NCBI GenBank assembly: GCA_964609395.1 | Contig: CAZSRU010000007.1 | Coordinates: 47 to 64,046, forward strand | DNA from: an uncultured Victivallales bacterium | GTDB taxonomy: Bacteria; Verrucomicrobiota; Kiritimatiellia; UBA8416 | Length of the DNA: 64,000 bases | Direction: 5' to 3' | Part shown: positions 4,881-62,411 of the stretch, in pieces | Layout: the number at the start of each line of letters is the position of its first letter | Numbering within the stretch: position 1 is the first letter of the stretch | Made by a program: the position numbers and the translations under genes | The notes under the pieces: generated by a model | What the model was told of the DNA's origin: nothing | Database searches by the model: none | What the model saw: the letters and a program-made list of their open reading frames with translations, nothing else

Positions 4881-4915
4881 TTGCGGGGCACTATAGACGG
4901 GGCAAGCACACAGGT

Positions 4916-4960
4916 CAAGGTTGCTGCAAGGGTTGCTGCAAGGGGTGCTGCAAGGGGTTT
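4916..4960. repeat. Short tandem repeat, about four copies of caagg(g)(t)tgctg. It lies in the spacer between the R-M gene and the nuclease gene.
   Basis: caaggttgctg caagggttgctg caaggggtgctg caaggggtttgcgg read directly. Confidence 0.4.
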
Positions 4961-5542: not shown

Positions 5543-5557
5543 ATTATCACCACCTTT

Positions 5558-10514: not shown

Positions 10515-11342
10515 ATGGACATGCCGCTCATGGAAACCGCGTTTGCCGCCGTCGCCAAGACGCTTGACATTGAACAGGCCGATACAGCCCTGATCCTCGG
10601 TTCCGGCTGGAGCGAGGCGGCCGACGCCTTCTCCCCCTCGTCCGAAATCCCCTACAGCGCGATTCCCGGTATGGGGACCACCGGCGTCGCCGGCCATGAA
10701 GGCCGCCTGCGCGTCGCCACCATCGGCAACCGCCGCCTGCTCATCTTCCAGGGACGCCACCACTGGTACGAGGGCCAAGGCTGGACGCCCGTCGGCCTGC
10801 CCGTCTTCATCGCCGCCCGCGCCGGCGTGCGAACCCTGTTGCTGACCAATGCCGCTGGCGGCATCAACCCGTCGTTCGCACCCGGCGACCTGATGCTGGT
10901 GACCGACCACATCAACGCCATCGGCACCAATCCCCTCGTCGGACCGCGCGACGCCCGCTGGGGCGAGCGCTTCCCCGACCAGAGCCACCTCTACGATCCG
11001 GGCCTGCTCGATCACCTGCGCCGGTCCGCCCGCGAGACCGGCATTGCCGTGCGCGAGGGCATCTACCTCGCCACCTCCGGCCCCTGCTACGAGACACCGG
11101 CGGAAGTCCGCGTCTTCCGCGGCATGGGGGCCGACGCCGTCGGCATGTCCACCGTGCCCGAAGCCATCCTCGCCGGGGCTGCCGGCATGCGCGTCGGGGC
11201 CATCTCCTGCATCACCAACCCGGCGGCCGGGGTCGATTCCGCCGCCACGCTCGCCCATGCCGACGTGCTCGACGCCGGACGCCGGGCCATGCCCGCCATG
11301 ACCACCCTGCTGCACCACGCGGTAACCCATGCAAACGCCTGA
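10515..11342 (+). CDS. punA: Purine nucleoside phosphorylase (PNP family I, PunA/XapA-like).
   Basis: ILGSGWS...GHEGRLRVATIGNRRLLIFQGRHHWYEGQG matches trimeric PNP motifs. SD gagagga is upstream. Confidence 0.85.
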   Translation: MDMPLMETAFAAVAKTLDIEQADTALILGSGWSEAADAFSPSSEIPYSAIPGMGTTGVAGHEGRLRVATIGNRRLLIFQGRHHWYEGQGWTPVGLPVFIAARAGVRTLLLTNAAGGINPSFAPGDLMLVTDHINAIGTNPLVGPRDARWGERFPDQSHLYDPGLLDHLRRSARETGIAVREGIYLATSGPCYETPAEVRVFRGMGADAVGMSTVPEAILAGAAGMRVGAISCITNPAAGVDSAATLAHADVLDAGRRAMPAMTTLLHHAVTHANA

Positions 11343-12675
11343 CCCCACACCCGCCACGCCGCCAGACGACCTGCGCCAGGGCGCGCTCGACGTCGCCCGC
11401 CGCCTGCGCGAGGCCGGCTACACCGCCTACTGGGCGGGGGGCTGCGTGCGCGACATGCTGCTCGGCCGCGAGCCGCGCGACTACGACATCGCTACTGACG
11501 CCGTCCCGGACGCCGTCCTCGCGTGCTTTCCCGGGGGCTGCACGGTCGGCAAGAACTTCGCCGTGGTGATTGTTCCCTGGAAGGGGCTGGCCTTCGAGGT
11601 CGCCACCTTCCGGCAGGATCACGGCACCGACGACGGACGCCACCCCGCCGCGATCTCGTTTGCCACCCCGCCGGAGGATGCCGCCCGGCGCGACTTCACC
11701 GTCAATGCCATGTTCCACGACCCCGTCGACGGCAGCGTGCATGACTATGTCGGCGGGCGCGCCGATCTCGCGGCCCGGCTGATCCGCTGCGTCGGCGATC
11801 CCGACCGTCGCTTCGGCGAGGATCACCTGCGCCTGCTGCGGGCCGTGCGCTTCGCCACCACGCTCGACTTCGCGATCGAGCCCGCCACGGCGGCCGCCAT
11901 CCTGCGCAACGCCCCCTCCATCGCGCGCATCAGCATCGAGCGCGTGCGCGACGAATTCACCCGCACCCTGCTCGAGGCCCGCCAGCCCGGCCAGGCCCTG
12001 CGCCTGCTCGACCAGCTCGGGTTGCTCGAGGTCTTCCTGCCGGAGGTCTCCGCCCTTAAATATCAGGAACAGCCGCCCGAATTCCACCCCGAGGGCGATG
12101 TCTTCACCCACACGGCCATGATGCTCGACGCCATGCAGGTGCGCTCTGCCGCCCTTGCCTACGCCGTGCTGCTCCACGACATCGCCAAGCCGGCCACCGC
12201 CTTCCACGACGGGCAGCGGCTGCGCTTTCACGGCCATGCCGAGCACGGGGCCCGCATGGCGGAGAAAATCCTGCGGCGGCTGCGCCTCCCCAACCGGGTC
12301 ATCGAGGAAGTCACCGCCTGCGTCGGGCGGCACATGCGGTTCATGGATGTGCGCAAAATGCGCCGATCCACCCTGCGCCAGCTTGTCGGTTCGCCAACCT
12401 TCGAGACCGAGCTGGAACTGCACCGGCTCGACTGCATTGCCTGCCACGGCCTGATGGAGAACCACGACTTCCTCTGCCAGGCCCGCGACGCCTTCGCCAG
12501 CGAGCCTGTGCTACCGAAGCCCTGGGTCAACGGCCGCGACCTCATCGCCCTGGGCGTCCCGCCCGGCCCCCGCATCGGCGCCCTGCTCAAAACCGCCTAC
12601 GAACTCCAACTCGAAGGCACCCACCCCGACCGCCAGGCCCTGCTCGCCCACATGCGAAACCACCTCGCGCCATAG
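11329..12675 (+). CDS. cca: CCA tRNA nucleotidyltransferase / poly(A) polymerase family protein with an HD domain. It overlaps the PNP gene by 14 nt.
   Basis: GYTAYWAGGCVRDMLLGREPRDYDIATDA is the polymerase-beta head motif. A downstream HD motif (LLHDIAKP...HGHAEHG) is present. Confidence 0.8.
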   Translation: MQTPDPTPATPPDDLRQGALDVARRLREAGYTAYWAGGCVRDMLLGREPRDYDIATDAVPDAVLACFPGGCTVGKNFAVVIVPWKGLAFEVATFRQDHGTDDGRHPAAISFATPPEDAARRDFTVNAMFHDPVDGSVHDYVGGRADLAARLIRCVGDPDRRFGEDHLRLLRAVRFATTLDFAIEPATAAAILRNAPSIARISIERVRDEFTRTLLEARQPGQALRLLDQLGLLEVFLPEVSALKYQEQPPEFHPEGDVFTHTAMMLDAMQVRSAALAYAVLLHDIAKPATAFHDGQRLRFHGHAEHGARMAEKILRRLRLPNRVIEEVTACVGRHMRFMDVRKMRRSTLRQLVGSPTFETELELHRLDCIACHGLMENHDFLCQARDAFASEPVLPKPWVNGRDLIALGVPPGPRIGALLKTAYELQLEGTHPDRQALLAHMRNHLAP

Positions 12676-13116: not shown

Positions 13117-15240
<2,124 letters not shown>

Positions 15241-32187: not shown

Positions 32188-34230
<2,043 letters not shown>

Positions 34231-34279
34231 TAAATATCCTAGGCATTAACTTTAACGAAATTGGTCGTGATTTCACCGT

Positions 34280-34507
34280 CGCCCTACAATGGTATGGAAA
34301 TCCAATGCAACCGGCAAACGTTTTCTCCTCAATGCATATCCTGCTGGGAGCGGATCTGTCCCGCAATCCCATCCCGCCTTCCACGATGGCGGTTTCGGTT
34401 TCGGCGGGGTTGTCGATGATGCGGTCGATCTGGCGGTCGGAGGCGCTGTTCTGGGGTTCAAGCAGGTCGAGGATGTTCGGGTTCTGCTCCGCCGCTTTCT
34501 TCTTGTT
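34280..34507 (-). pseudogene. GC-rich coding-like remnant (KKKAAEQNPNILDLLEPQNSASDRQIDRIIDNPAETETAIVEGG...) lacking a start codon. It is a probable 3' fragment of a disrupted methyltransferase/R-M-type gene. Its core is ~90% identical to 46440-46516.
   Basis: The open frame begins directly after the exonuclease gene stop. Codon third positions are GC-rich, like the host. Shared core is gtcgaggatgttcggg.t.t.ctccgccgctttcttcttgtt. Confidence 0.35.
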
Positions 34508-35677
34508 TTAAATCATTTCTACCGACATGAAATCACTTACATGACATACCGCGATGCCATAGTCCCTTGCCTTCTCAATCTTGCCCGTGCGTGAATCTTT
34601 CTCACCGCAATTTACAAGTAAGTTTGTTTGCTTCGTAACATTAGCACTTGGCAAATACCCATTTTCAACAGCCCACGGGAACAGTGTTTCATAACGATCT
34701 ACAACAACGTCTTTTACCACCAGTTCATTTGTAAAGCATACGACTTTTAATCCAGGCACGATTTCTTTGATGAGTGTAAAATGCACGGACGTATTGAACC
34801 CGAAAAGGGTTGCAAGCTCCTCTAGGTCGGAAAATTCATCCCACGTGATCTTCCCGTCCTCATAGTAATCGGCGATTAGCCCAAGCATGGCCTTTCGTAG
34901 CTCATTTTGTGCAACTTTCTTGTCAATCTGGATGCTGGCGATCCGATCCATTTCGTTTGCATCAAAAACCCGATCTTCGCAGATTTCTTCTATCAATCGG
35001 TTGAACAAGTCAATGCTCACCTCATCCTTCCTGTCCCCCCATCCGTCGAATGCTTTCAAGCTATGTGTCGTTCTTTGCTTTGCTTTAACAGGGAACATGG
35101 GGTCGTGTTCATTTTGCAAAAAGCCACGATACACATCCATATCATAAATATGGCACGTATGCTTGACTCCCTCTTTCTGCTGAATCATGAAAAGTTCTCG
35201 AACCATGTTAACATCATCCTCAGCCTTATGTTCTTGAGTGATGTCAATGCCCCTTCGCTGCAAAGACTCATACAATCGATTGCCTCCCATGCCAAACCGG
35301 TGTTGCTCTGTCTTGCATGTGCAGATATAGCTCATTGGCTGGGGGTCAATTCCAGCAGCAAGGAATTCTGCGAATAGAAATTTAAGATCAAATTGAACGT
35401 TATGGCCGACAATAATTTTACCGAACATCTGATCGTACACTGTACGAGCAATCTCGGAGAACAACGGTGCACCTGTTATCATGTCGCGATCAATCCCGTT
35501 GATTTCAGTTATCCGTGCAGGTATTGGATGGCCAGGATCTATCAATGTCGTAAAACAACCACCGACTTTGCTGTAAATGCATATTTCCAGAATACCGCAT
35601 CCCCTCTTTGGGGAAAGTCCTGTTGTCTCAAGGTCTAGGAATACCAACTGATTCTCATCATTTTTTAAAAACATCAT
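34508..35677 (-). CDS. DnaQ-like DEDDh 3'-5' exonuclease fused to a C-terminal BRCT-like domain.
   Basis: Exo I FLDLETTGLSP, Exo II HNVQFDLKFL, Exo III H..AEDDV. The C-terminal ~80 aa (GLKVVCFTNELVV...NLLVNCGEKDSRTGKIEKARDYGIAVCHVSDF) has a BRCT-like pattern. The ATGATG start with AGGAG SD lies 20 nt inside the upstream channel gene. Low GC. Confidence 0.75.
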   Translation of the reverse strand: MMFLKNDENQLVFLDLETTGLSPKRGCGILEICIYSKVGGCFTTLIDPGHPIPARITEINGIDRDMITGAPLFSEIARTVYDQMFGKIIVGHNVQFDLKFLFAEFLAAGIDPQPMSYICTCKTEQHRFGMGGNRLYESLQRRGIDITQEHKAEDDVNMVRELFMIQQKEGVKHTCHIYDMDVYRGFLQNEHDPMFPVKAKQRTTHSLKAFDGWGDRKDEVSIDLFNRLIEEICEDRVFDANEMDRIASIQIDKKVAQNELRKAMLGLIADYYEDGKITWDEFSDLEELATLFGFNTSVHFTLIKEIVPGLKVVCFTNELVVKDVVVDRYETLFPWAVENGYLPSANVTKQTNLLVNCGEKDSRTGKIEKARDYGIAVCHVSDFMSVEMI

Positions 35678-36497
35678 GTTGCTGCTCCTGATCTATTTTT
35701 TTGCCGTTTTCAAGCGCTTCCAGACGACGGCTGATGGTTTTCAGTTCGTTTAGGATTTCTTCAGCTTGGTTTTCGCGGGGATTCTGTATGAAAAACAATG
35801 CAACGTAGGCCGTGAAGGCACCAAGCATGCCAACGCCGGCGACCATCAAGATGGCGGCAATGATCCGCCCCGTTAGCGTGACGGGATAAAAATCACCGTA
35901 TCCGACTGTGGTGATGGTCACAAACGACCACCAAATGGCGTCGGATGCCGTCTTTATGTTGCTGTCCGGCGCGGTCTCACAATTCAATATGGCAATAGAG
36001 GACGACACTATCAAGAGAAAGGAAATCATCGAAACGCTGGCGAGGGTACCTTTTGCGCGATTCGCGAAGATGACCTTAGCAATATGCCTTGTAGATCGGA
36101 TTCCACGAAGAATTCTGAGAATGCGGATGATTCTGATCAACCTTCCCCACCGAAGCAGCGAAATGTTAGGAATACTCGACAACAGATCAATCCACCCCCA
36201 CTTCAAATATCCCAGACGGTTTTTGGATCGGATGACGTTGAACACAAAATCACCGATAAAAACCAGGCAGATAAGATTGTCGATATACGTCAGCAGGGAG
36301 GATGTTTCTGCCGGAAGCGTGACAATGGTGTCTACAAATAGTGCGCCCAGTACATAGACGCAAAGAATGAGCATCACGATCTGCCAGATGGCAGCCACGT
36401 TTTCTTTATCAATGCCTTTTGATAAACGATTTATCATGATTGATGGATTTCCTAGCCAGATAACCACGGCCGCACTGTATATATTTTCTTCGGCCAT
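35658..36497 (-). CDS. Voltage-gated K+ channel homolog (6TM, Kv/KvAP-like, no RCK domain). Start chosen at MAEENIYS; the ORF-track N-terminal 73 aa are a duplicated transposase-gene fragment.
   Basis: S4 voltage sensor RWGRLIRIIRILRILRGIRSTR (Arg every third residue). Pore helix + selectivity filter TTVGYGD. S5/S6 helices. Low GC. Confidence 0.75.
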   Translation of the reverse strand: MAEENIYSAAVVIWLGNPSIMINRLSKGIDKENVAAIWQIVMLILCVYVLGALFVDTIVTLPAETSSLLTYIDNLICLVFIGDFVFNVIRSKNRLGYLKWGWIDLLSSIPNISLLRWGRLIRIIRILRILRGIRSTRHIAKVIFANRAKGTLASVSMISFLLIVSSSIAILNCETAPDSNIKTASDAIWWSFVTITTVGYGDFYPVTLTGRIIAAILMVAGVGMLGAFTAYVALFFIQNPRENQAEEILNELKTISRRLEALENGKKIDQEQQHDVFKK

Positions 36498-36509
36498 GTC
36501 CAGATCGGC

Positions 36510-36995
36510 GATACGGGCGGCCCAGGCGTTCATGGCAAGGCATTGCTCGCGGGTGTGCTTGGCGGGGGGGGGGCTTCTTCCGGCGGGCGGCAGGCGAGGA
36601 TGAGGAGTCGGCCTTGCAGGCAGAGGTCGAAGTACTGGCCGCGCGGCTTGAAGCAGGCGTCGAACCCGTCGGGCTTGATGAGTTAATCGGGGTAAGCTTT
36701 CAGTATGGCATGCCACAGGTCATAGACCAGCCAGCCGTCTTCGTTGAGCCGTGCGCGATTGTCGGCGCAATGGGCGAAGAGCGGGCGGCGCTCGTGGGTC
36801 GTCATCGTGATCATGTAGAAGGCGGGGGCTCGGTAGTCCTGGCAGGGGCTGCGGCGGTTCATTCACCCCTCCTTTGGCGGGGCGTGAACGCCCCTTGTGG
36901 GACTGGATACGCGCACACGCAGCAGACATGCGCCATCCGGCACGTGAGCCGTAATACAATCCCGATCCCGTGTTCACACGGGAGCCGCTGCCCGC
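36510..36995 (-). pseudogene. Internally deleted tandem copy of the RAYT-like gene. It retains the 3'-end fragment (36510-36680, ~170 bp, matching 37055-37225) fused to the promoter/5'-end fragment (36690-36990, ~300 bp, matching 37765-38085), and it includes REP-like hairpins.
   Basis: Direct comparison of the two copies. The truncated frame MNRRSPCQDYRAPAFYMITMTTHERRPLFAHCADNRARLNEDGWLVYDLWHAILKAYPD* stops after ~58 codons. Confidence 0.6.
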
Positions 36996-37001
36996 ACACG
37001 C

Positions 37002-37928
37002 TCATTCATTTTCCCCCATCCCGTGCAGTTCCGCGTCGGCGGCGGCGATGGCAGCGGCCCAGTGGTTCATGGCCAGGCATTGCTCGCGAGTGAGCTTGGC
37101 GGGGGCTTCTTCCGGCGGGCGGCAGGCGAGAATGAGCAGCCGGCCTTGCAGGCAGAGGTCGAAGTACTGGCCGCGCGGCTTGAAGCAGGTGTCGAAGCCG
37201 TCGGGCTTGATGAGGATGACTTCGCCACCGGCATCCAGTGCCGCGCGGGCAATGGCCTTTTCCCCCGGCGAGATGAAGGGCGAGACGATGACCGCGCCCT
37301 CGCCAACCCGCTTGAGCGTGGCCTGTCGCTCGGCGTCCAGTTCCGGTTGAGTAACCCGCCGCGAGACCCGCAGGGAATGCATCTCGGGTTTATCGAGAAG
37401 GAACAAGTTGCCGTAGCCCGTCCAAGGTTCGTCCGGCGGTAACCGGGCATGGCGAAGATTGTTGACACGGCGGAAAAGGTCGGGGTGCGCCTTCTTGAGG
37501 CAGTAGCGGCGGGGATTGTCGCAAAGGTAATGGGTATAGGCTTTCAGCGCGCCCCGGCGCCAGACGCACAGGTCGTGGTATCCGGGGCTCCACACGGTCA
37601 GTCTGGGATTTCCGTATTTCTTGCGCAGAGCGCTGGTGACCTGCGACTTGAACGCCCGCAAGGGCACACCCACGCTCTGTTGCATGCTGGCGGTCACCCG
37701 CACGATGCCGTGGAGGTGATCGGGCATGATCACCAGCGTGGAGAGCGCCACTTCGGGGTAGGTTTTCGGCATGGCATGCCATAGGTCATAGACCAGCCAG
37801 CCGTCTTCGTTCAGCCGTGCGCGGTTGTCGGCGCAATGGGCGAAGAGCGGGCGGCGCTCGTAGGTCGTCATCGTGATCATGTAGAAGGCGGGAGCTCGGT
37901 AGTCCTGGCAGGGGCTGCGGTGGTTCAT
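37002..37928 (-). CDS. HuH Y1 transposase of the IS200/RAYT (REP-associated tyrosine transposase) family with a ~160-aa C-terminal extension of unknown function. Start chosen at MNHRSPCQ with SD GGAGGT.
   Basis: IMPDHLHGIV (HuH motif) and AYTHYLCDNPRRY (catalytic Tyr / Y..NP motif) align with RayT LPEHMHCIW and DYRHHVDYIYINPVKH. REP-like hairpins GGGGCGTGAACGCCCC and CCCGTGTTCACACGGG lie upstream. Confidence 0.7.
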   Translation of the reverse strand: MNHRSPCQDYRAPAFYMITMTTYERRPLFAHCADNRARLNEDGWLVYDLWHAMPKTYPEVALSTLVIMPDHLHGIVRVTASMQQSVGVPLRAFKSQVTSALRKKYGNPRLTVWSPGYHDLCVWRRGALKAYTHYLCDNPRRYCLKKAHPDLFRRVNNLRHARLPPDEPWTGYGNLFLLDKPEMHSLRVSRRVTQPELDAERQATLKRVGEGAVIVSPFISPGEKAIARAALDAGGEVILIKPDGFDTCFKPRGQYFDLCLQGRLLILACRPPEEAPAKLTREQCLAMNHWAAAIAAADAELHGMGENE

Positions 37929-38085
37929 GAGTACCTCCGCTGGCGGGGCGTGAACGCCCCCCGTGGTACTGGATACCGGGTTCGCGCCGGCTCCGCCTTG
38001 GGCGCGAACGCCCCGTGCACGCCGCAGCATCCAGTTCCGGTCGCGTGTTCACACGGGAAGCCTTGCCAACTGCCGCTCATGCTTC
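37765..38085. repeat. Repeat B copy 2: upstream region and 5' end of the RAYT-like gene with REP-like hairpins (ggggcgtgaacgcccc; ggttcgcgcc...ggcgcgaacc; cccgtgttcacacggg). It lies directly after the atpG stop.
   Basis: ~90% identical to 36690-36990. The hairpins were read directly. Confidence 0.6.
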
Positions 38086-38114
38086 TGCTCCCATCTAGCA
38101 CAAACCGTCCTTTC

Positions 38115-38963
38115 CTAGCGGTACATGCCCGCGACGATTTCGAGCATTTCGGTGGTGATGTTCTCCTGGCGCAGGCGGCTGTAGCGCTTGCGCAGGCCCG
38201 TGAGCATCTCGCCGGCATTCTCGGCGGCGCGGCTCATGGAGAGCTGGCGCTGGGCGTGTTCCGAGGCGGCGCTGTTATGGAAGGCGTCGTGGATCGCGCG
38301 GCGGACGTATTCCGGCAGCAGGCTGTCGATCAGCGCCTGCGCGGAAGGCTCGATCGGCGGGGAGGCGGGGGCGGCGGGCGCCGTCGCACCGGAAGCGGGG
38401 ACGAGGGTGGTGATCGGCAGCAGTTGCTGCACGGTGATCTCCTGGCGGCTGCGGGTGATGAAATCCCAGTACAGCAGATGCACTTCGCGAAACCGGCCGC
38501 TGCCGAAGTCGTCCATCATGCGATCAGCCAGCCCCTCGATCTGCTCGACCCGCTCCAGCGGGGCGAGCTGCCGGCGCACAGCCCGGTTGTACGGCACCTT
38601 GCCGCTCATCAGGAGATGCACGGTGTCATCGCCGTGCTGCTCGACGAACGTCGTGACCGCCTTCATCAGGACCGTGTTGAACGTGCCGCACAAGCCGCGG
38701 TCGGCCCCGAACACAAGCAGCGCGATGGCGTTCCCGCCCGCCCGCGGCTGCATCAGCGGGTGGGACTCCGCACCGGACGGCAGACCGCGGTCGGCCAGGT
38801 TCAGCAGGGCCAGCAGGCGCCCGGTGTACTCGTCGGCATTGGCGATGCGCCGCTGCTCCTGGACGAGCTTGGCGCTGGCCACCTTCTGCAGGGTGCTGGT
38901 GACCTTGCGGATCTGCGCCGTCGTGCCGATGCGCCGCTTGATGTCTGATAACGCTGTTGCCAT
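38115..38963 (-). CDS. atpG: F1 ATP synthase gamma subunit.
   Basis: MATALSDIKRRIGTTAQIRKVTSTLQKVASAKL... and C-terminal ITTEMLEIVAGMYR are canonical. Confidence 0.9.
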   Translation of the reverse strand: MATALSDIKRRIGTTAQIRKVTSTLQKVASAKLVQEQRRIANADEYTGRLLALLNLADRGLPSGAESHPLMQPRAGGNAIALLVFGADRGLCGTFNTVLMKAVTTFVEQHGDDTVHLLMSGKVPYNRAVRRQLAPLERVEQIEGLADRMMDDFGSGRFREVHLLYWDFITRSRQEITVQQLLPITTLVPASGATAPAAPASPPIEPSAQALIDSLLPEYVRRAIHDAFHNSAASEHAQRQLSMSRAAENAGEMLTGLRKRYSRLRQENITTEMLEIVAGMYR

Positions 38964-46538: not shown

Positions 46539-46844
46539 TTACGCTTCAACCAGGTATTCAGGATGGCGCTCTGCAATTTCCAGCAGACGCAGGGCAGGAC
46601 CGGACGGTTTGCGGCGACCTTGTTCCCAACTGATTTCCGTATCGCGGGCAACGCCCAATACACGAGCGAATACAGCCTGGCTTACGCCCAGTGCTTTGCG
46701 AATGCGCACAATATCTTTTGACGGGCGTTCTTCGGGTAATTCCGGGATCGGCACGCGTTTCGTTTTTAGCGTTATCTTCCCCTGTGCATGCGCCAGCACC
46801 TCGTTCAGGCTTTCCGTAAGTTCAACGAATAATTCTTTCTTCAT
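46539..46844 (-). CDS. XRE-family HTH protein of the COG2944/HigA-like antitoxin type.
   Basis: LGVSQAVFARVLGVARDTEISWEQGRRKPSGPALRLLEIAERHPEYL is the characteristic HTH + ...EQGRR.PSG.A..LL tail. Confidence 0.7.
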   Translation of the reverse strand: MKKELFVELTESLNEVLAHAQGKITLKTKRVPIPELPEERPSKDIVRIRKALGVSQAVFARVLGVARDTEISWEQGRRKPSGPALRLLEIAERHPEYLVEA

Positions 46845-47042
46845 TCCTATACTCTGATAAGTTCAGTAATACGCCTCGTGAAGATGCTTGTCTCAATAAA
46901 TGTGACGTGATGTTTCATATAACTATATGACTATGTACAATAGACCGTTCAGTCTTCCGATGCAAGAACGTTTTTATATTTGTCGGCAATTAGTCGCGTT
47001 CCACTATGGACAAATCGTCAATGGCGCTGTTCATCACATTGT

Positions 47043-50000
47043 TCATTTCTCTGCTCCGTAAAGCTCCGCGACGGCGGAGTCGAGGGTGGCGGTTAGGGCG
47101 GCGAGTTGGTTTTTGCGGTTTTCGGTTTCGTGCGGGGAGCCGGGGGCGGCGAGTTGTTGCCGCAGGGCGATGAGCTGATCGACTAGGGCGATGAGCTGGC
47201 GGACTTTCTCCGGTCCGGCCTCCTCGGGCGGGATGACCGGGGCGGTCTCGATGTATTGCTTGGAGAATTTGATGTAGCCGCCGCGCAGGTTGGTACTTTG
47301 CGCCGCGATGATGTCGCCGAATTGAGAGGAGTTCATCAAGGCCAGCAGGTATTTGATCGGGTAGGCGGCGGTTTTGGGTCGGATGCCGTAGAAGGGGCCG
47401 CTGCCGCCGCCGGTCATGTAGAGTCCGGTGGTGTCGAGCATGACGGTCGGCCGCTGCGCGGTGACCTGGATGATGAGCTTATCGGCGTCCATCTGCGTAA
47501 GATTCTGCGAACGGCCGAAGGCGTACCAGCGGTCGTGCTTCCATTTGCCCCGTTCACGCTGTCGCAAGGTATCACGATTTTCGCAGAGATAGGTCCAGCC
47601 TTTCGGGTATTTGTGCTCAAGCGTTTCCGCCGTCATCAGTTCGGCTTTGCCGTTGACGATCTCGTAGGGGAAGATGATGCGGGCTACCGGTTGCGGCGTG
47701 GTGTAGGCACTAAGTTCCCCGGTCAGCAGGAACGGTCGAGTGAGACCGCGTTCGATTTTCGAGTCAAGCGGGACAACAAATACGTTGTCGGCACTGGTTT
47801 GAAGGCCGACGAAGATGTGCGCGACATCGCCAAGCTTGGTTTTTAGCCTGTCGAGGCGTTCGAGCGTCCCTGCGTTCTTCCCGGTGATGAAGTTCCAGGG
47901 TTCGTCGGTGAGCAGCTTGTTGGGTGTCGTGCCGATGATGGATGCGCCGTCTTTCCTTGGTTTACGAATCCGGTAGAGGGCGGCGGCTTCCTTGAGGGTC
48001 GGTGTGGTGCTTGTGCTCTGATGAACAGGCGAGACGCCTGTGCAACTTTTGGGTTCCTGTTCGGAACGCCATTCGGCAAGATCCGGCACCAGCCGATGTG
48101 AACAGGTTGTCATGCTTGCTTTTTCGAGAAACAGCAAACATGTATAGGTGGTTGCCCCCGCGAAGACCTGCTGGTCGCCGAAGTGGACAAGGTGCCTCAG
48201 GTGCTGTCCTGCGGTGATGATTTTGCGCAATGGCCGTCCGTATTGCGCGTTGATGAACTTGTGTGGCAGGATGTAGCCCATGCTGCCGTTAGGGTTGAGA
48301 AGCTGGAGTGCCTTTTCCACGAAGACGACGTAGATGTCGTAGTTGCCTGCCGATGCCGCATGGTACAGCGTCTTGTAAAGTTCGACTTCAGCCGGTGCCC
48401 ACTCCTTCATGGTCTGGATGCGGATATACGGCGGATTGCCGATGATGCAGTCGAAGCCGCCGCCGCCGTCAAACACCCTTGCGAATGCCTGTTTCCAGTC
48501 GAAGACGTTGATGCGGTAACGGTCATCCTCGGACAGCAGGGAAAGCTCCTGCTGGCGATAAATCTCCGGGCCGATGAGGGAGTTGCCGCATTTGATGTTG
48601 CCGCCGAGGTCGGGCAGGATGCGCTGGCGCTCGCTGAGGAAGTCGCGCTGGAGCTGCTGTTGGGTTTCGCCCTCCAGCACCTTGAGCAGTAGCGAGAGCT
48701 TGGTGACTTCAACCGCCTGGGAGTCGATGTCCACCCCGTGGATGCTGTTGAGCAATATGCGCTTGCGTTCGGCGGTGGTGAGTCGCCAGGTGTCGCCAGC
48801 GGCCTGGTAAATCTTTGGTGCTTTCCCGGCGGCGTTGCGTCTGGCTTTTTCGAGATCGAGTTCGCCGGTGGCGGGATCGGCGGTGTATTGCCTTAAATGC
48901 CAGTCGAGCAGGTATTGGTAGGCGACGATCAGGAACGAGCCGGACCCGCAGGCGGGATCCAGCACCTTGATCTCGGCGGCTTTGGCCATGGAGACGGGCT
49001 GGGGCTTTCCGGGATCTTCGCCATCGAGGAGCCGTCCGAGGGTATTCTGGACGATGTAGTCGACGATGTAGCTGGGGGTGTAGTAGACGCCGCCCGCCTT
49101 GCGGACTTCGGGCTTTTCCTCGATTTTGGCCTGATGGCCGTCGGTCAAGCGGATGGTCTTGCCCAGGAACTGCTCGTAGACTTGGCCGAGGATGTCGGCG
49201 GACAGGACGGAGAATTCGTAGGGGGAGTCCGGGTAGTAGAGGTTCTTGAGGATGTCCTTGAGGATCTTGTCGTCGATCTCCAGATGCGTGGTGAGCGTAT
49301 CGGGGGAGCCGGTGCGGCCTTTTTCGCCGGAGTCGAAGTGGAAGAGCCCGGAGTTGTAGCGTGCATCAGCCTGGTGGAAGAGCTGCTGTAGGCGGGTGTA
49401 GGTGCGCGGACCGTTGAGCAGTGCCTGCAGGCGGCCGTAGTCCTCGGTGCCGCGGTCCTCGCAGATGCGCAGGAAGATGATCCGGTCGATGGTCTTCTGC
49501 ACGGCGAGGTTGAGATCGCGGACGGTGAGGCCGGGGTTGCGGATGGCGAGGTTGCGGGCGAGCAGGTCGCGCCAGCGTTCGATCTCGGCCAGGAAGGTAT
49601 CGTCCACCGCGCCGGTGCCGCGTTTGCCCTTGGCGGTTTCGGCGTATTTGTCGAAGGAGCCGCGCAGGATGGCGTCGCGGGAAAAGACCGCCGCTATCTC
49701 GTTCCATTTGTCGACGTACTGGTCGAATGTGTAGTAGAGGATACGGGCCTTGGCGGGGCGGTCGGCCTTTTCCGGTTTGACGCGGGTGTCGTAGACGGCC
49801 AGCTCTTCGAAGTCGGAAAGAATGGAAAGCGGGAGCTTGGCGGACCAGCCGTAGCGGCGGAGCTGGTAGGCGGGGGCGATGTCAACGTCGATATTGACCG
49901 AGGGCTTCTTGGCCTCGACGAAGAACTTGCGGGTGCCGCCGATGCGGAAACAGTAGCCGGGAGCCTTGGTATAGCCGCCGATGCGGATGGCGTCCTCATG

Positions 50001-55356: not shown

Positions 55357-56091
55357 ATGCATGAGATAGAAAGAACCGTCATCATCGCGCTCCCGACCGT
55401 GTTCGGGATCGACCTTAGCATCACCAACGAGATCGTGCTGCTCTGGATCGCCGCCCTGGCCTGCTTCACGGTCCTGACGCTCGCCTGCCGCCGCAAGGCC
55501 CTCGTCGCCACGGGTGTCTTCCCGAACCTGATGGAGGCGCTGATTGACTTCATCGACCGCAGCGCCGGCCGCGAGATCCTCGGCAAGCAGGCGTCGCGCT
55601 GGTCCACCTTCCTGCTCACCCTCTTTTTCTTCATCCTCTTCAGCAACCTGATGTCACTGGTCCCCCTGCCCTCGCACGTCAAGGCCATGACCTCCAGCAT
55701 GAGCGTGACGGGCGCTCTGGCACTGGTCGTCTTCGCCGTCACGGTCGTGGTCAATATACGCCAGCACGGCCTGATCGGGTTCCTCGCGCGTTTCGCCCCG
55801 CCGGGGCTGCCGCTGGCGGTACGGATCTTCGCCTTCCCGATCGAGGTGGTCAGTTGGCTCGCCCGGCCGCTGTCACTGGCCATCCGCCTGTTCGCCAACA
55901 TCCTGGCCGGGCATGCGCTGATCCTGATCTTCCTGGGCATGGCCGCCTCCAGCACCTGGTTCCTCAAGCCCCTGCCCTATGCCGGGGCCGTGGTCATGAG
56001 CGTCTTCGAGCTGCTGGTCGGTTTCCTGCAGGCCTTTATCTTTACATTGCTGGCCGGAATGTATATCAAGGACGCCATGGATTCGCACTGA
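55357..56091 (+). CDS. atpB: Fo ATP synthase a subunit.
   Basis: Polytopic protein with the conserved essential Arg region LAIRLFANILAGH. Confidence 0.85.
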   Translation: MHEIERTVIIALPTVFGIDLSITNEIVLLWIAALACFTVLTLACRRKALVATGVFPNLMEALIDFIDRSAGREILGKQASRWSTFLLTLFFFILFSNLMSLVPLPSHVKAMTSSMSVTGALALVVFAVTVVVNIRQHGLIGFLARFAPPGLPLAVRIFAFPIEVVSWLARPLSLAIRLFANILAGHALILIFLGMAASSTWFLKPLPYAGAVVMSVFELLVGFLQAFIFTLLAGMYIKDAMDSH

Positions 56092-56415
56092 GGAAGTCAC
56101 CCGGTATCAGCGGCGCAACCAATGACCTATCGGGTGCAAGCCGATGCTCGCTTATCCCTGAGCGGGCGGGACGGGCACCACCCGTGTTCCTACTGGCGGC
56201 TGGATGAAAACGGTCATCTTAGGTTGCACCTGTATTTCCGTCGCCACGGCGGCGATGGGTAACTGAGATACCCCGTCGATCTGATCTCAGATACCGCTTC
56301 ATCTCCGCCGTCAACACATCCCAATCCCCATTCGCATAATTAGCGAAATTCGCGGTTAAACTCCCCGAGCACAATGCCTATAGCCTGCGGTCTACAGTCT
56401 CTCTATGCGTGGATA

Positions 56416-57651
56416 TCAGATGGCGTTCCAGGGGATGGCGATGGCATGCTCGGAGAGTCGATAGGGAAGGCTTCCCCCGTAGACAATAACGCCGGGTTGC
56501 GCGGTAGAGTAAGTGCTGCGAAAGGCCTGTATGCCACGCGTGTCGTGATTTGAAAGACGTGTCGCCGCTTTGAACTCGATCGGGAACAGCTTGCCGTTGT
56601 AGTCAAGGACGGTATCGACTTCTGCGCCGTTCTGGGTACGCCAATGGTACATGGTGGGCGCGAGCGAAAGTCGCTGAATCTGGCGGTGAATCCAGCCAAC
56701 ACCCCAGGACTCGAAGAGATTCCCGAAATGCGGGCTGGCCAGCAGGCTTTCGGGCGATGGAATGGCGTTGAGATAGCAGGCGAGCCCCGTGTCCTGAAGG
56801 TGTCCTTTGGGCTTTGCACTGAGTTTCTTGATGGCATTGCCGGAATAGGCCGGTAATTCTAGCCATTGATAGGACCATACGAGCAGGTTCAGCCAGGCAC
56901 GGGCAGTCTTGGGGGTGATTCCCAGTTCGCGACCGAACTGGGCTTGTAAGATCTCCTGGCCGGTCAGGGCACCGCAGAGTCGCAGGAAGCGGCCGAAGTG
57001 CGCCATGTCGGAGAGGTCTGCCATGCGCCGCACGTCCCGCTCAACATAGGTTTGCACGTACGATCCCAAGTAAGCCGGAACATCCTCGTCATCCAGCGGT
57101 ACAAGGGCCGGTAAAGCACCCCGCCATAGGTGCCGGCACAATGAGTGCCGTGTTTCAAGAGTCAGAATGCTGTTGATGTTGTCCGCGAATCCATTAGCGT
57201 CTGATAGATAGTCCACCAACCAGCTTTGAGCATCGGCTTTGCCGGCCTCTTCCGCCGGGGTGAGTCCATCGAGGCGCAGTATGCCGACGCGTCCTGCCAG
57301 ACTTTCCGAAACATCACGCAGAACTGCCAGATTCTGGGAGCCTGTCAGAAAATACTGTCCCGTCCCATCGGAACAATCCACGCGTCGTTTGAGTGCCGGC
57401 AGAAGTTCCGGTGCGTATTGCACTTCATCCAGAATGAGCGGTGAACTGAATGTGCCCAGAAACTGGTCCGGATCGCTGCGGGCCCCGTATAGATCTTGAA
57501 CGGGGTCGAACACGACTTTGCGGACATTCGGGAAAACATGCTCCAGGAGCGTGCTCTTGCCAACCTGTCTCGCCCCAGCGACGAGTACGGTTTTGAACGC
57601 CTTGGCATGACGAAGAAGTCTCGGTTCCAAGTGTCGGTTTAGATAGTTCAT
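56416..57651 (-). CDS. AAA+ ATPase of the DUF4143 family (COG1373-like), inserted between atpB and atpE. Start chosen at MNYLNRHLEP; the ORF-track extension is spurious.
   Basis: Walker A VLVAGARQVGKST, Walker B ILDEVQ, C-terminal DUF4143-like region. Confidence 0.75.
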   Translation of the reverse strand: MNYLNRHLEPRLLRHAKAFKTVLVAGARQVGKSTLLEHVFPNVRKVVFDPVQDLYGARSDPDQFLGTFSSPLILDEVQYAPELLPALKRRVDCSDGTGQYFLTGSQNLAVLRDVSESLAGRVGILRLDGLTPAEEAGKADAQSWLVDYLSDANGFADNINSILTLETRHSLCRHLWRGALPALVPLDDEDVPAYLGSYVQTYVERDVRRMADLSDMAHFGRFLRLCGALTGQEILQAQFGRELGITPKTARAWLNLLVWSYQWLELPAYSGNAIKKLSAKPKGHLQDTGLACYLNAIPSPESLLASPHFGNLFESWGVGWIHRQIQRLSLAPTMYHWRTQNGAEVDTVLDYNGKLFPIEFKAATRLSNHDTRGIQAFRSTYSTAQPGVIVYGGSLPYRLSEHAIAIPWNAI

Positions 57652-57658
57652 GCCTGTT

Positions 57659-57686
57659 AAATTACCAAGGTATACAGTATTGTCAA
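57659..57686 (-). promoter_or_regulatory. Sigma-70-like promoter for the AAA ATPase gene: TTGACA - 16 nt - TAATTT (minus strand), with a short leader.
   Basis: Reverse complement of 57652-57690 reads attattgacaatactgtataccttggtaatttaacaggcATG. Confidence 0.45.
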
Positions 57687-57867
57687 TAATGATTATAATG
57701 GCAATTAATACAAACCAATAGCGACCGGCGCAACTCGTAATCCGCTCTCGTCGCCCGCTCTCGTCCACCGGCTCCACAAGAATTTCAAATCCCGAGCAGC
57801 AGTCTTTCTTTGTGCCATTCGCGCTATCCTTAATTCGCGCCTTGTCGTCGGGGCCGGAATCATGTAG

Positions 57868-58230
<363 letters not shown>

Positions 58231-59281: not shown

Positions 59282-61029
59282 CAAATGATATGACACGCCA
59301 CCCCGCCCGGAAACGGTTGTTGTTCCTACAGTTACCTCGTCTCGATCCAGACGTTTCCGCGCCGGGGGAAAACGTCATGCTGGCCGCCGCCTGCCTGACG
59401 TATGCGCTGCGGCGTTCGCCAGAAGTAAGGCACTGGCGGTTGCTGGAGGCCTCTGCCGCACAGGACAACCTGGCGGATGCGCCCCTGCTGGCGCATCTGG
59501 CGGAACTGCGACCGGACTGCATCGCCACCACCGCCTACCTCTGGAACGTGGAGCGGACGCTGCGGCTGCTGCAGGACCTCAAACGCCTGCTCCCCACCCT
59601 GCGCGTCGTGCTTGGCGGCCCCGAAGCCGCGCACGAGCACACGCTGCTCTTCCGCGCCGACTCTCCGTGCGATGCGATTGCCATCGGCGAGGGCGAAACG
59701 GTCTTCCCGGCCATACTGCAGTCACTTCGCACCGGGGAACATCCCGATATCGAAACCGTGGTCACCCGCCTACAGGTGCCTGCGGTCAAGGGCCAACCGT
59801 CTGAGTGGACCTGGGGAACCCGACCACGGACGCTGCCCGCCCTGATCGACATCCTGCCCCCGCCAGCCGCCCGCGTCAACCGCCCGGATGCGCACGGCAT
59901 GGCCTACCTTGAAACCAGCCGTGGATGCCCCCTGCGCTGCGCCTTCTGCTGCTACAATCTCCGCCGCGCCGGCAGCAGTTCGCTCCCGCCCGAGAACGTT
60001 TTTCGGCGTGTCCGGATCCTGCAACGCCGGGGCGCTCGCGAGATCAGGCTGGTGGACCCAACCTTCAATGCCCACCCGCAGTTCGACGTCGTCGTCGCCA
60101 CCCTGGCACGTGCCAATCGCGACCGCAAGATCGCCTTTTTTGTCGAGATCCGGGCCGACACCCTGACCGAGGACCAGGCACGTCAACTGGCACAGGCCGG
60201 GGTGACCGAGGCGGAGGTCGGCATCCAGAGCACCGATCCGGCCGTGTTACGAATCCTGCAGCGCGGCACGAATCCCGCTCGCGTATTGCGCGGTATCGGC
60301 TACCTTCAGCAGCACGGCATCCGCCCCACGATCGACTTCATGTATGGGTTGCCAAGGCAGGATCGCCAGGATATCGACCGTTCCCTGCAGTGGCTGGAAA
60401 ACGTTCCCGATTCGCATCCGCAATTCCTCCCGCTCCTGCTGCTGCCGGGCACCGAACTGCGCGACCGGGCGGCCGAACTGAAACTGAAAGCACAGCCCCT
60501 GCCGCCCTACCGCGTCCTATCCACCGACAGGCTGAGCACCCGCGACCTGCGTGAGATCGAGAACGAGGCGGCTGAGCGCCTCGGGGCATTCGACGCCCCG
60601 ACCGAAACGTTTGCCGGCCGCCGGTTGCCGGATCTTTTCCCCGACCAGTCCCGTTGTGCTGCCCCCTTTGACCTGACAGACCTGCCGCCGGCTTCGGCAA
60701 ACCGCCAGACCCTGTACCTGCGCGGACATGATCTGTTCCAGCAGCGGGCAAGGCTTTCCGCCATCTTGCGGCATGCCATCAAGTCGGAACCCGATATCCT
60801 GTGGCAGTTTGTTCTCGAACCATTCCAGGAGGAACCGCTGGATCTGCTGGATGAACTGCTGACCGTCTTGAGTCGCCAACCCTCGCACTGGCTCGACCGC
60901 CTGCTCGCCCCCCCCGGTCAGCGCATACTGGCGGCACGACGGCTCTTCATCCGCCCCGTACGCGGCACCCGCGTTTCCCCCGACTGGCTAACCGCCTGCG
61001 ACGACCTCATCGCCTGCAGCTCGCATTGA
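59278..61029 (+). CDS. B12-binding-domain radical SAM protein (class B radical SAM).
   Basis: SRGCPLRCAFCCY (CxxxCxxC) after an N-terminal Rossmann-like B12-binding region. GTG start overlapping the atpH stop; the alternative ATG is 59290. Confidence 0.75.
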   Translation: MTNDMTRHPARKRLLFLQLPRLDPDVSAPGENVMLAAACLTYALRRSPEVRHWRLLEASAAQDNLADAPLLAHLAELRPDCIATTAYLWNVERTLRLLQDLKRLLPTLRVVLGGPEAAHEHTLLFRADSPCDAIAIGEGETVFPAILQSLRTGEHPDIETVVTRLQVPAVKGQPSEWTWGTRPRTLPALIDILPPPAARVNRPDAHGMAYLETSRGCPLRCAFCCYNLRRAGSSSLPPENVFRRVRILQRRGAREIRLVDPTFNAHPQFDVVVATLARANRDRKIAFFVEIRADTLTEDQARQLAQAGVTEAEVGIQSTDPAVLRILQRGTNPARVLRGIGYLQQHGIRPTIDFMYGLPRQDRQDIDRSLQWLENVPDSHPQFLPLLLLPGTELRDRAAELKLKAQPLPPYRVLSTDRLSTRDLREIENEAAERLGAFDAPTETFAGRRLPDLFPDQSRCAAPFDLTDLPPASANRQTLYLRGHDLFQQRARLSAILRHAIKSEPDILWQFVLEPFQEEPLDLLDELLTVLSRQPSHWLDRLLAPPGQRILAARRLFIRPVRGTRVSPDWLTACDDLIACSSH

Positions 61030-61238
61030 GCGACTTGTCCCGCGTGGACACGATCTTTGCATAAAGCCATATTGGCTTTAGGACAAGGGCCTCGGTCTCT
61101 TTAGCCCGACATGCTTACTGCCGTTGGTGCCGTACTTTTCCATCAACCGCATCCCCATCTCCGCATGCCAGTGAAAGCTGTCGCGGTCATTGATGTCCAG
61201 CGGGTTATCCAGATGAGGCATGGATCTTCATTCGTGGC

Positions 61239-62411
61239 TCACCCTTCTTTCTGATTAATGCCTGGCAGCAGGATGTCACCCTCATGAAGCAAGCGATCTT
61301 CAGCAAAAGCCTGGCGTAACACATCCTCAATTCCAGGGATAATCGTAATCTGAGCGCCGTTTTCAGAAGTACATGTTTCTCCTTCGACCGGGCGGACGGG
61401 ACAGGCCCGGTGAATCGCACCGACTACCATGGTCTGGCGGGAGGCAAGCTCAAGATCGCAGATGAATGACGATCCTCCCTGCACCGCATCAAGCACCGCG
61501 TCCATCATCGCATGGCGCGCACCGGCACCCCCGCCGGTGGTTAGCCCGATCGGCTTACCGCCGCGCGGACTGATGGTAATACGGTTGTGAGTCATTAGAA
61601 TCTCGCCTTTTGTTCCCAAAATATGGATCTCCGGCTCAAATGTCTTCTTGCACGCGTGAGAAGCGTAAAACCGGATCGGCACCCCTTCCTCCGTTGTAAT
61701 ATGCATGCAGGCGGTATCGGCACTCTCGATGGCATTGGCCCTGTAGATCTCTGCATCCACCGATACGGGGATTGCCGCCTCGCGCTCGGTCGCGCCAGCC
61801 TGGAAAAGCATCATCATCAGCTCATGTGCCACGGCGTTGTTGAAAGGGGAGTCGTTAACGACGGCGTTCCCAACCGTGAGCCGGCCTGCCCAGCTGTTGC
61901 GCGTATAGTAAGAGTGGTCCCGCGGCCACATGACCAGGCACTTGATAGACTCCAGCTTGCCAATTGTCCCGTTCAGGATGTGACGCTTAGTATCCATGGT
62001 CGACTGGGCGTACATCTGCTGATAACCAACGGCTACGGTCCTGCCTGCTTTCTGTGCCGCTATCTGCATGGCTCGCACATCTTCGATACAGCCCGCCGCA
62101 GGCTTCTCCACAAGCACGTTCATCCCCGCCTCCAGCGCCGCCAGGGTCATTGGCCGGTGGAGGGGCGTCCCTGTGGGAATCATGCACAGTTCCGCCCTGC
62201 CGGAGAGTTCGGTCAGCATCACCCGGTAGTCGTCAAAAACACGACAGCCCAGTTCATTCAGGCGCGTACATTTGTCCGTTTCTTCAGTCGGATTAATAAT
62301 CGTTGCACCCGCGATCCCGACTTTGCCTGCCGCTTGCGCCGCAAGCAGCAGATCGTAATGAACCCGCCCATAACCTGACACACCGATTATACAGGATCGA
62401 ATCATAATCAT
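61239..62411 (-). CDS. Gfo/Idh/MocA-family NAD(P)-dependent oxidoreductase.
   Basis: N-terminal Rossmann fold IGVSGYGRVHYD and EKP motif (VLVEKPAA). Confidence 0.8.
   Translation of the reverse strand: MIMIRSCIIGVSGYGRVHYDLLLAAQAAGKVGIAGATIINPTEETDKCTRLNELGCRVFDDYRVMLTELSGRAELCMIPTGTPLHRPMTLAALEAGMNVLVEKPAAGCIEDVRAMQIAAQKAGRTVAVGYQQMYAQSTMDTKRHILNGTIGKLESIKCLVMWPRDHSYYTRNSWAGRLTVGNAVVNDSPFNNAVAHELMMMLFQAGATEREAAIPVSVDAEIYRANAIESADTACMHITTEEGVPIRFYASHACKKTFEPEIHILGTKGEILMTHNRITISPRGGKPIGLTTGGGAGARHAMMDAVLDAVQGGSSFICDLELASRQTMVVGAIHRACPVRPVEGETCTSENGAQITIIPGIEDVLRQAFAEDRLLHEGDILLPGINQKEG

Follow-up and report, generated by a model that had tools for sequence, protein, structure and literature searches.

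The question raised by the locus described here is what kind of genetic element has come to lie between atpG and atpD in the ATP synthase operon of an uncultured Victivallales bacterium. The stretch of DNA analysed, called the window below, comprises 64,000 nucleotides (nt) of contig CAZSRU010000007.1 (GenBank assembly GCA_964609395.1, positions 47 to 64,046 of the forward strand); coordinates are positions in this 64-kilobase (kb) window, and the elements and their neighbours lie on its minus strand. The inserted block of ~4.2 kb consists of two related units, a cassette low in guanine plus cytosine (GC) that encodes a K+ channel and a DEDDh exonuclease, and a DUF2442 gene. Each unit is a leader module, made up of a distal hairpin (D), a pairable spacer (ACTGGAT...ATCCAGT) and a proximal hairpin (P), followed by one gene; unit 1 is intact and under purifying selection, and unit 2 is a pseudogene. 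In our view the locus is probably occupied by a low-copy IS200/IS605-RAYT superfamily element that is present as two units in tandem and carries a new domain fusion. The element looks to be rarely mobile at present and lies at the edge of a small foreign-gene island in the atpG-atpD spacer. Its new part is the conserved fusion of a Y1 HUH domain to a DprA-like domain (HUH-DprA), together with covarying hairpin modules.

The intact protein of 308 amino acids has two domains, a Y1 HUH domain at approximately residues 1-150 and a DprA-like domain at approximately residues 165-300. The N-terminal half is a Y1 HUH enzyme of the IS200/IS605-RAYT superfamily. Residues M68, P69, H71 and H73 of its HUH motif are invariant in both of our alignments, including that of 20 diverse members, and D70 is nearly so; Y134 (37527-37529), which aligns to the catalytic Tyr132 of ISDra2 TnpA, is likewise invariant, and H71, H73, Y134 and N138 are retained without exception across diverse family members. 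Among the NCBIfam models the best match is REP_Tyr_transpos, the REP-associated tyrosine transposase (E = 6.9e-14, residues 13-141), with an NCBIfam RAYT score of 51.9 bits that is under the 80-bit cutoff of that model, and the match to Pfam Y1_Tnp is weak and below threshold (17.9 vs 23 bits). A search of the PDB with the single sequence found nothing and profiles were required: a profile of 20 diverse N-terminal domains matched ISDra2 TnpA (1.6e-5) and RAYT (1.5e-4), with MPDHxH falling on their HUH motif. In an AlphaFold2 model of the intact protein built from 51 homologues (mean predicted local distance difference test score, 88.8), the N-terminal domain matched the TnpA proteins of ISDra2, IS608 and IS200 and the RAYT structure 4er8 in Foldseek comparisons with the PDB (E = 6e-7 to 1e-5); for the E. 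coli RAYT 4er8 the target-normalised template-modelling score (TM-score) was 0.62 and the root-mean-square deviation 3.1 Å. An earlier note on this DNA, made from its letters alone, had described the gene as a HuH/RAYT-like Y1 transposase with a long C-terminal extension. Both parts of that description stand, since the HUH and tyrosine motifs align with those of ISDra2 TnpA and the E. coli RAYT, and the extension is present at a length of roughly 150 amino acids.

The same note had seen no recognisable motif in the C-terminal half, which, from its modelled fold and sequence profile, is instead a DprA-like Rossmann domain. This domain is divergent, is conserved throughout a large family, and is related to the curated DprA family without being a member of it. 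The domain search that the note had proposed yields nothing in Pfam and leads to DprA by Foldseek and by profile. For the C-terminal domain, Foldseek returned DprA of Streptococcus pneumoniae and Helicobacter pylori (3uqz, 4ljk) at E values of 2e-4 to 1e-3, and the DprA structures together with the DprA-like protein ShosA span 2e-5 to 1e-3. An independent profile of 30 C-terminal domains matched H. pylori DprA (E = 2e-4) and S. pneumoniae DprA (6.5e-3), and the part aligned is the strand-helix-strand with which the Rossmann fold opens (for H. pylori DprA, GNxFLLD...VS). Searches of Pfam, PADLOC and PHROGs gave no match to the C-terminal half, nor to the whole protein beyond the weak one to Y1_Tnp. 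Proteins that appeared to consist of the C-terminal domain only turned out to be fragments or split gene calls, one example being the Oligosphaera gene, which an in-frame repeat tract interrupts.

This two-domain architecture is widespread. A word-indexed search gave 783 matches, nearly all of which span 94-97% of the query, and an exhaustive search gave 253 cluster representatives at E<1e-30. The family is found mostly in Kiritimatiellia, Lentisphaerae and Verrucomicrobia; its named members come from Kiritimatiellia, Lentisphaerae/Victivallales, Verrucomicrobia/Opitutaceae and Akkermansia-labelled bins, with one Spirochaetaceae-labelled bin in addition, and it is essentially absent from plasmid and phage collections. 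Besides the HUH histidines and Y134, the invariant positions include D137-N138-P139-R140-R141 and, in the C-terminal domain, G-Y-G-N-x-F-L-L-D, S-P-F-I-S-x-G-E and K-P-x-G...C..G-R. The ratio of nonsynonymous to synonymous substitution rates (dN/dS) in close pairs is 0.05-0.2 in each domain; this indicates purifying selection, and both halves of the protein are therefore considered functional. We found no description of a HUH (Y1)-DprA fusion in a literature of which our coverage is incomplete. A subfamily (L055 5179-6504, from Oligosphaera ethanolica; P0139, P0144 and P0270) carries a long, GC-rich, low-complexity tandem-repeat insertion, in frame and placed in the loop that joins the HUH strand to the Tyr helix, so that its proteins reach 440-560 amino acids. 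In the Oligosphaera ethanolica isolate, the gene caller split the repeat-bearing gene and called an opposite-strand open reading frame (ORF) through the repeats.

The other new component of the element is its pair of hairpins. D, of the form stem-GT-GA/AA-AC-stem, lies upstream of nearly every homologue, and P, whose core is inverted with respect to D (stem-GT-TC/TT-AC-stem), follows ~60-100 nt after it near the gene start, ending 6 nt before the ribosome-binding site in the window (GGAGG, 37934-37938) and within ~50 nt of the start at other loci. The short palindromes that had been noticed upstream of the gene are these cognate hairpins, and they occur family-wide. D of unit 1 is followed by ACTGGAT, which can pair with the ATCCAGT ahead of the P hairpin. 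A D hairpin is also found downstream of the gene at ~11 of 20 loci; at some loci the downstream sequence is a full D+P module and at others there is nothing. The downstream D overlaps the stop codon of the gene at several loci, and in the window the intact gene terminates (37002-37004) at the TGA of the TGAGCG with which the next module starts. The D hairpin that separates the two copies may belong to unit 1 as its right-end hairpin, to unit 2 as its left-end hairpin, or to both. The closest relative (L002/L043, 90% amino acid identity) lies between mscL and a hydrogenase-like gene and has the arrangement module-gene-module, a second gene being absent. In a member that is 36% identical the hairpin is another one, GGCGCGCTTGAGCGCC, which occurs around the gene twice in direct and once in inverted orientation.

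The hairpin cores are kept, and the stems vary by lineage with their pairing retained. In sequences chosen with the requirement that the inner four pairs be present, 86.9% of D positions are paired, with 33 double-change cells, and 90.3% of P positions, with 46; none of 500 shuffles reached the score, and in slid controls the paired fraction drops to 30-57%. Covariation of the stems argues for a folded single strand over a double-stranded operator, and hairpins folded in this manner would fit, by analogy, the way in which Y1 transposases read their ends. The sequence GTGTRAACAC occurs twice in the 64 kb, as opposed to 0.09 times expected, a count that 0 of 100 shuffles reached. In the window and all fetched loci, perfect palindromes of this type lie almost only within ~150 nt of HUH-DprA genes. 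The rest of the 64-kb window has none, and the flanks of ~20 other genomes have a single stray palindrome with 6-bp arms (L011); when JGI metagenomes were scanned for exact D+ACTGGAT, two stretches came up, of which one is an L002-type element. The likeness to repetitive extragenic palindromes (REPs) that the earlier note had drawn thus holds for the form of the hairpins but not for their abundance or dispersal, as in the window and the other fetched loci they stand beside the gene only, apart from the L011 palindrome; homologues, and paralogues in one chromosome, came to light, but no scattering of hairpins in any of the sequences just named. The second JGI stretch (L042 6066-6095) is an exact D+ACTGGAT inside a 377-amino-acid coding region with no HUH-DprA gene nearby, and is probably a chance match, although it may be a relic. 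Modules also expand and contract, since the number of hairpin units differs among strains and loci: a 43-nt hairpin unit is present once or twice depending on the strain (L045 vs L046-L054, ~4870-4935), and in L004 the D hairpin is repeated at a spacing of 25-27 nt, twice ahead of the gene and three times behind it (1961-2010, 2990-3065).

Table 1. Features of the two units, their hairpins and the flanking genes (window positions)
Feature	Position	Strand	Remarks
atpG (ATP synthase gamma)	38115-38963	-	left flank of insertion
Left edge of unit 1	38058-38095	-	20-37 nt past atpG stop codon
Leader of unit 1	38095-37929	-	
D hairpin, unit 1	38042-38057	-	CGCGTGTTCACACGGG, imperfect copy of TCCCGTGTTCACACGGGA; gene strand CCCGTGTGAACACGCG; one stem mismatch
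Third, degenerate P-like palindrome in leader	38000-38013	-	GGGCGCGAACGCCC; gene strand GGGCGTTCGCGCCC; 54-nt-spaced partial duplicate
P hairpin, unit 1	37945-37960	-	GGGGCGTGAACGCCCC; gene strand GGGGCGTTCACGCCCC; 6 nt upstream of GGAGG
Intact gene, 308 amino acids	37002-37928	-	starts MNHRSPCQ
HUH motif MPDHLH	37710-37727 (residues 68-73)	-	aligns with HUH motif of ISDra2 TnpA
Tyrosine motif AYTHYLCDNPRR (AYTHY134LCDN138PRR)	37506-37541 (residues 130-141)	-	
DprA-like domain	37029-37436 (~residues 165-300)	-	by fold and sequence profile
Second leader	37020-36863	-	
D hairpin between copies	36966-36983	-	TCCCGTGTTCACACGGGA, TCCCGTGTGAACACGGGA
P hairpin, unit 2	36879-36894	-	GGGGCGTGAACGCCCC; gene strand GGGGCGTTCACGCCCC
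Deleted copy, 5' fragment	36683-36862	-	59-codon ORF ending in TAA
Deleted copy, 3' fragment	36506-36682	-	matches residues ~239-298
K+ channel gene	35658-36533	-	independent gene call, 291 amino acids
DEDDh exonuclease gene	34508-35677	-	20-nt overlap with K+ channel gene
DUF2442 gene	33889-34230	-	right end of ~4.2-kb block; stop codon 16 nt ahead of atpD start
atpD	32472-33872	-	right flank of insertion; start at 33872

Unit 2 is a diverged and decayed relative of unit 1 (Table 1). The two leaders are 72% identical (36954-37020 vs 38029-38095), and three further segments match at 91% over 224 nt (36687-36910 vs 37753-37976), 95% (36566-36682 vs 37098-37214) and 86% (36506-36568 vs 37043-37105). 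A counterpart of 37215-37752 is missing, which agrees with the earlier claim of an internally deleted tandem copy immediately downstream, the deletion amounting to 538 bp relative to the intact copy. The 5' fragment has 90% amino acid identity to residues 1-59 and then meets a TAA at the deletion junction; the premature stop had been noted, but it follows 59 codons rather than 58. Within the 3' fragment, expansion of the G-run at 36566-36575 by 5 nt has introduced a frameshift. The ORF track does fuse this fragment to the K+ channel, as had been stated, in a 352-amino-acid ORF (35658-36716), whereas the independent call starts the channel at 36533.

At the left edge of unit 1, resemblance to unit 2 begins at 38095 and resemblance to L002 at ~38078 (TGAGCG). 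At its other end unit 2 resembles the intact copy less strongly past ATCGCC (~36510) and no longer at all by ~36490, with a looser resemblance beyond ATCGCC that may extend ~27 nt, through GAAAAT; from this fading, the low-GC DNA starts somewhere in ~36490-36510. Independent copies are alike from a few to ~20 nt upstream of D through the ATCGC codons, which specify a conserved Ile-Ala in the last helix, and their C-terminal tails past this point are unrelated. No common short motif could be fixed in the left flanks of independent copies. A third module or repeat was looked for beyond the low-GC genes and none was found, no Rfam family matched in 33500-38500, and promoter and terminator scans of the locus stayed at chance level.

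Internally deleted copies are also found elsewhere, in L017 (residues 4-66 joined to 212-295), L018 (1-49 joined to 256-295) and L019 (4-53), and several metagenome proteins carry in-frame internal deletions. Because L018 is the deleted positional ortholog of the intact L033 (their flanks are 88% identical) and its deletion junction is a clean 5-nt microhomology, CTTTG, we conclude that slippage produces deleted copies in place. Clean slippage fits L018, and the origin of the other two junctions, that of the window and that of L017, which hold 4-nt fillers (TTAA and TTAG), is less clear. The proposal in the earlier note that the locus reflects recent replication or recombination activity was not borne out, as the copies have diverged by 5-14% and the deleted copy of L018 arose in place between short direct repeats.

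Homologues of the intact gene are located in many unrelated places, mostly oriented like the gene upstream of them: between rpsG and fusA, with HigBA-like genes; after pstB, beside MmeI-type restriction-modification genes; after an Ech/Mbh-type hydrogenase operon; after pdhAB; after rpoN-alr; and beside NUDIX, MsrAB or glycoside hydrolase genes. One complete chromosome contains three copies, of which two are intact and diverged and the third is deleted; its paralogues are 88-93% identical and at different sites. The presence of diverged paralogues at different sites implies that the element has moved in the past. Copies within a genome are 57-93% identical overall, and so lack the near identity by which IS200/IS605 copies are recognised.

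On the reading that we favour, the HUH domain would act as it does in IS608 and ISDra2 and recognise the hairpins when the DNA is single-stranded, with a metal ion presumably held by H71 and H73. Y134 would cut the strand through a 5'-phosphotyrosine link and rejoin it at or near the D hairpins, and the outcome would be excision and re-insertion on single-stranded DNA. The DprA-like domain might provide extra single-stranded DNA binding or dimerisation, and possibly a contact with RecA; DprA itself takes up incoming single strands and loads RecA in transformation. The tandem pair could have come about by insertion of a second unit beside the end of the first or, alternatively, by unequal exchange or over-replication between flanking modules. 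Unit 2 lost 538 bp internally, presumably by slippage between short repeats, and gained its stop codon and frameshift later.

Several observations weigh against this reading of the locus as a mobile element. Neither identical copies at two different sites nor an empty site or a circle junction was seen, and each protein that was looked up exactly (the window's own, P0062, P0375, P0028, P0010 and P0079) occurs in a single context across many samples. Orthologous positions persist in related genomes, in which respect the gene is more like a resident than like an active insertion sequence; from these two facts we read the element as rarely active at present. A whole second D+P module lies 3' of the gene at several loci, as a simple left-end/right-end model would not predict. 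Since the inner four hairpin pairs were selected for, only the outer pairs provide an unbiased test of covariation, and folding of the whole leader as DNA is no better than that of shuffled sequence (z = -1.04), so that only the individual hairpins are supported. As to the C-terminal domain, no Pfam model recognises it, the DprA signature (DNA_processg_A) is absent, and any role assigned to it is purely inferential. The main rival explanation is that the gene is a domesticated, vertically inherited RAYT-like gene, resident in single copy, whose product would maintain, copy or process its own flanking hairpin modules, in the manner of RAYTs and REPINs, or serve a single-stranded-DNA function of the host. 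That explanation draws on the fixed site of each protein, on the orthologous loci L004/L033/L018 and L011/L014, on the strong purifying selection on both domains, on modules that flank the gene on both sides (including an inverted copy in L045) and vary in number (L045 vs L046-L054, and the two plus three D copies of L004), and on the annotation of members as RayT by JGI. We nevertheless regard it as a tentative alternative that is rather unlikely to be correct, given that modules are not dispersed (in the window, in the flanks of ~20 genomes with their one stray palindrome, or beyond the two JGI stretches), that the score is under the NCBIfam RAYT cutoff, that the gene is frequently lost by internal deletion, and that divergent paralogues stand at unrelated sites of one genome.

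A different possibility is that the gene and its 3' hairpin module form an integron-like platform, a hot spot at which foreign cassettes lodge, here the K+-channel/exonuclease pair. Such a platform would explain the accessory and defence genes inside core operons, and it is in keeping with the start of low-GC DNA near the point where the similarity of the dead unit fades, with the variable DNA 3' of the gene in three orthologous loci, with the recurrence of defence-type neighbours (MmeI/Eco57I restriction-modification, HigBA-like and PDC-S48) and with the duplicated fragments of neighbour genes that flank the unit in L030. We judge it very improbable, however, as most loci have ordinary housekeeping neighbours, the putative cassettes have no hairpin module or repeat at their far end, cassette arrays are absent, exonuclease homologues reside in contexts without a HUH-DprA gene, and the accessory genes of L020 are located 5' of the unit. 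The broader proposal that HUH-DprA and its hairpin modules constitute a new single-stranded-DNA capture platform, in which the enzyme would nick at its own 3' hairpin and the DprA-like domain would recruit RecA or incoming DNA, also seems improbable to us; were a capture platform to exist, foreign genes such as the low-GC K+-channel/PDC-S48 pair would come to be lodged at the 3' boundary of the element, even inside the atp, str and pst operons. That the tandem duplicate is an artefact of assembly or a chimera is scarcely credible. The sequence is derived from a metagenome, and repeats can mis-assemble, but the divergence of the copies (5-14% in the coding fragments, with distinct indels, and 28% in the leaders) excludes such an artefact. 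The same structure is found on an ENA contig that stands for three contigs with this protein, a separate Logan contig spans the junction of atpG and unit 1, and similar deleted copies and module-gene-module structures exist in unrelated assemblies. The repeats are accordingly real, a point on which the earlier note had asked for a check.

In most cases a Y1 HUH transposase or RAYT is a minimal enzyme with a single domain and relies on host replication for single-stranded DNA. With the TnpA proteins of the IS200/IS605 group (ISDra2, IS608/ISHp608 and IS200) the window protein shares the Y1 HUH fold and the equivalent positions of the HUH and catalytic Tyr residues, and with the elements themselves a single small transposase gene and, on both sides of it at about half of the loci, same-strand hairpins in place of terminal inverted repeats; the hairpin stems covary with their structure retained. 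It differs in being twice as long, owing to the fused DprA-like domain, and in falling under the Pfam Y1_Tnp threshold, and the HUH-DprA unit differs in having a second hairpin with an inverted core in its leader, in having its right boundary inside the 3' end of the ORF with no tnpB partner, and in its few, diverged copies with no evidence of current transposition. RAYT/REPIN systems resemble it in the best NCBIfam match and the structural similarity to 4er8, in low copy number, fixed position and vertical inheritance (orthologous loci), and in cognate palindromes on both sides of the gene that are sometimes inverted and variable in number. Unlike them, the family shows no genome-wide spread of palindromes (64-kb window, flanks of ~20 loci, JGI metagenome scan), its hairpin core is GT-NN-AC and not a GTAG or CGTC tag, and its gene has an extra DprA-like domain and is often lost.

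The C-terminal domain has, in its model, the Rossmann fold of DprA/Smf proteins (SLOG superfamily) and ShosA but lacks a SAM or winged-helix domain, has SPFISxGE in place of the glycine-rich loop, and is fused to a nuclease, whereas DprA is a stand-alone RecA loader. In common with integrons and with IS91/ISCR elements there is a recombinase gene beside structured single-strand sites, with foreign genes adjoining and units in head-to-tail tandem; in contrast to them, the neighbour genes have neither attC-like sites nor repeated ends, cassette arrays are not seen, and the enzyme is of the Y1 type rather than a tyrosine recombinase or a Y2 enzyme. The fusion of a Y1 HUH enzyme to a DprA-like domain suggests a different coupling of single-strand cutting and joining to strand binding or recombination. 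It defines a large family, concentrated in the poorly studied Planctomycetes-Verrucomicrobia-Chlamydiae group, for which there is no Pfam model of either the fused architecture or the C-terminal half, and its covarying hairpins are ready substrates for biochemistry and perhaps for tools for insertion of single-stranded DNA. The locus also demonstrates that a core operon (atpG-atpD) tolerates an insertion of 4.2 kb, including a candidate defence gene.

In the remainder of the inserted block, the K+-channel and exonuclease genes stand out by their composition, with 40-47% GC as compared with 62-68% in the host DNA and both units. The channel is of the voltage-gated type (Ion_trans, Ion_trans_2) and, as called, opens with what were the last codons of the dead copy. 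The exonuclease, a DEDDh enzyme with a BRCT-like tail, matches the PADLOC defence candidate PDC-S48 over its full length (E = 1.8e-44). The idea that it travels with HUH-DprA genes was rejected, because its homologues (54-62% identity) sit in other contexts without either the K+ channel or a HUH-DprA gene; a mechanistic link between the element and what the earlier note had called the cargo cassette is at most putative, and the genes of the island are treated here as neighbours and not as proven cargo. The orthologous trio of loci, L004/L033/L018, is not uniform from the 3' end of the gene to a NUDIX gene, where there is a module only, a segment of 650 nt at 46% GC, or a 1-kb ThuA-like gene. 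The trio and the window together hint that the 3' boundary attracts insertions. Approximately 280 nt of higher-GC sequence precede the DUF2442 gene (within 33889-34507, minus strand) and read like a gene fragment (...AAEQNPNILDLLEPQNSASDRQIDRIIDNPAETETAIVEGG); this fragment and the DUF2442 gene may be the remnant of a DUF4160/DUF2442-type gene pair.

Other observations concern genes of the MmeI type. In the window, an MmeI/Eco57I-type restriction-modification gene (1046 amino acids) followed by an MqsA-like antitoxin gene lies in a GC dip ~9 kb from the element (~46540-47930, minus strand; L001 1-1390). MmeI-type genes are found directly upstream of HUH-DprA units in L019, L007 (a fragment) and L030, and share a ...LTPEEIxxVE tail that ends right at the D hairpin. 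In L030, moreover, diverged duplicates of neighbour genes flank the HUH-DprA unit (7871-7955, 9008-9073, 9085-9169 and 13770-13835), and no explanation so far accounts for them. One duplicate is the first 85 nt of the MmeI-type gene, 92% identical and joined to the C-terminal tail of the family in a 26-amino-acid mini-ORF, and another is 66 nt from inside a Zn_ribbon_Top1 gene 4.7 kb away, 95% identical. Finally, the GC content of the window, with a background of ~60-68%, departs from that level in several other intervals, namely 5001-7000 (50-52%), 11001-12000 (73%), 56001-58000 (55-57%) and 61001-62000 (56%).

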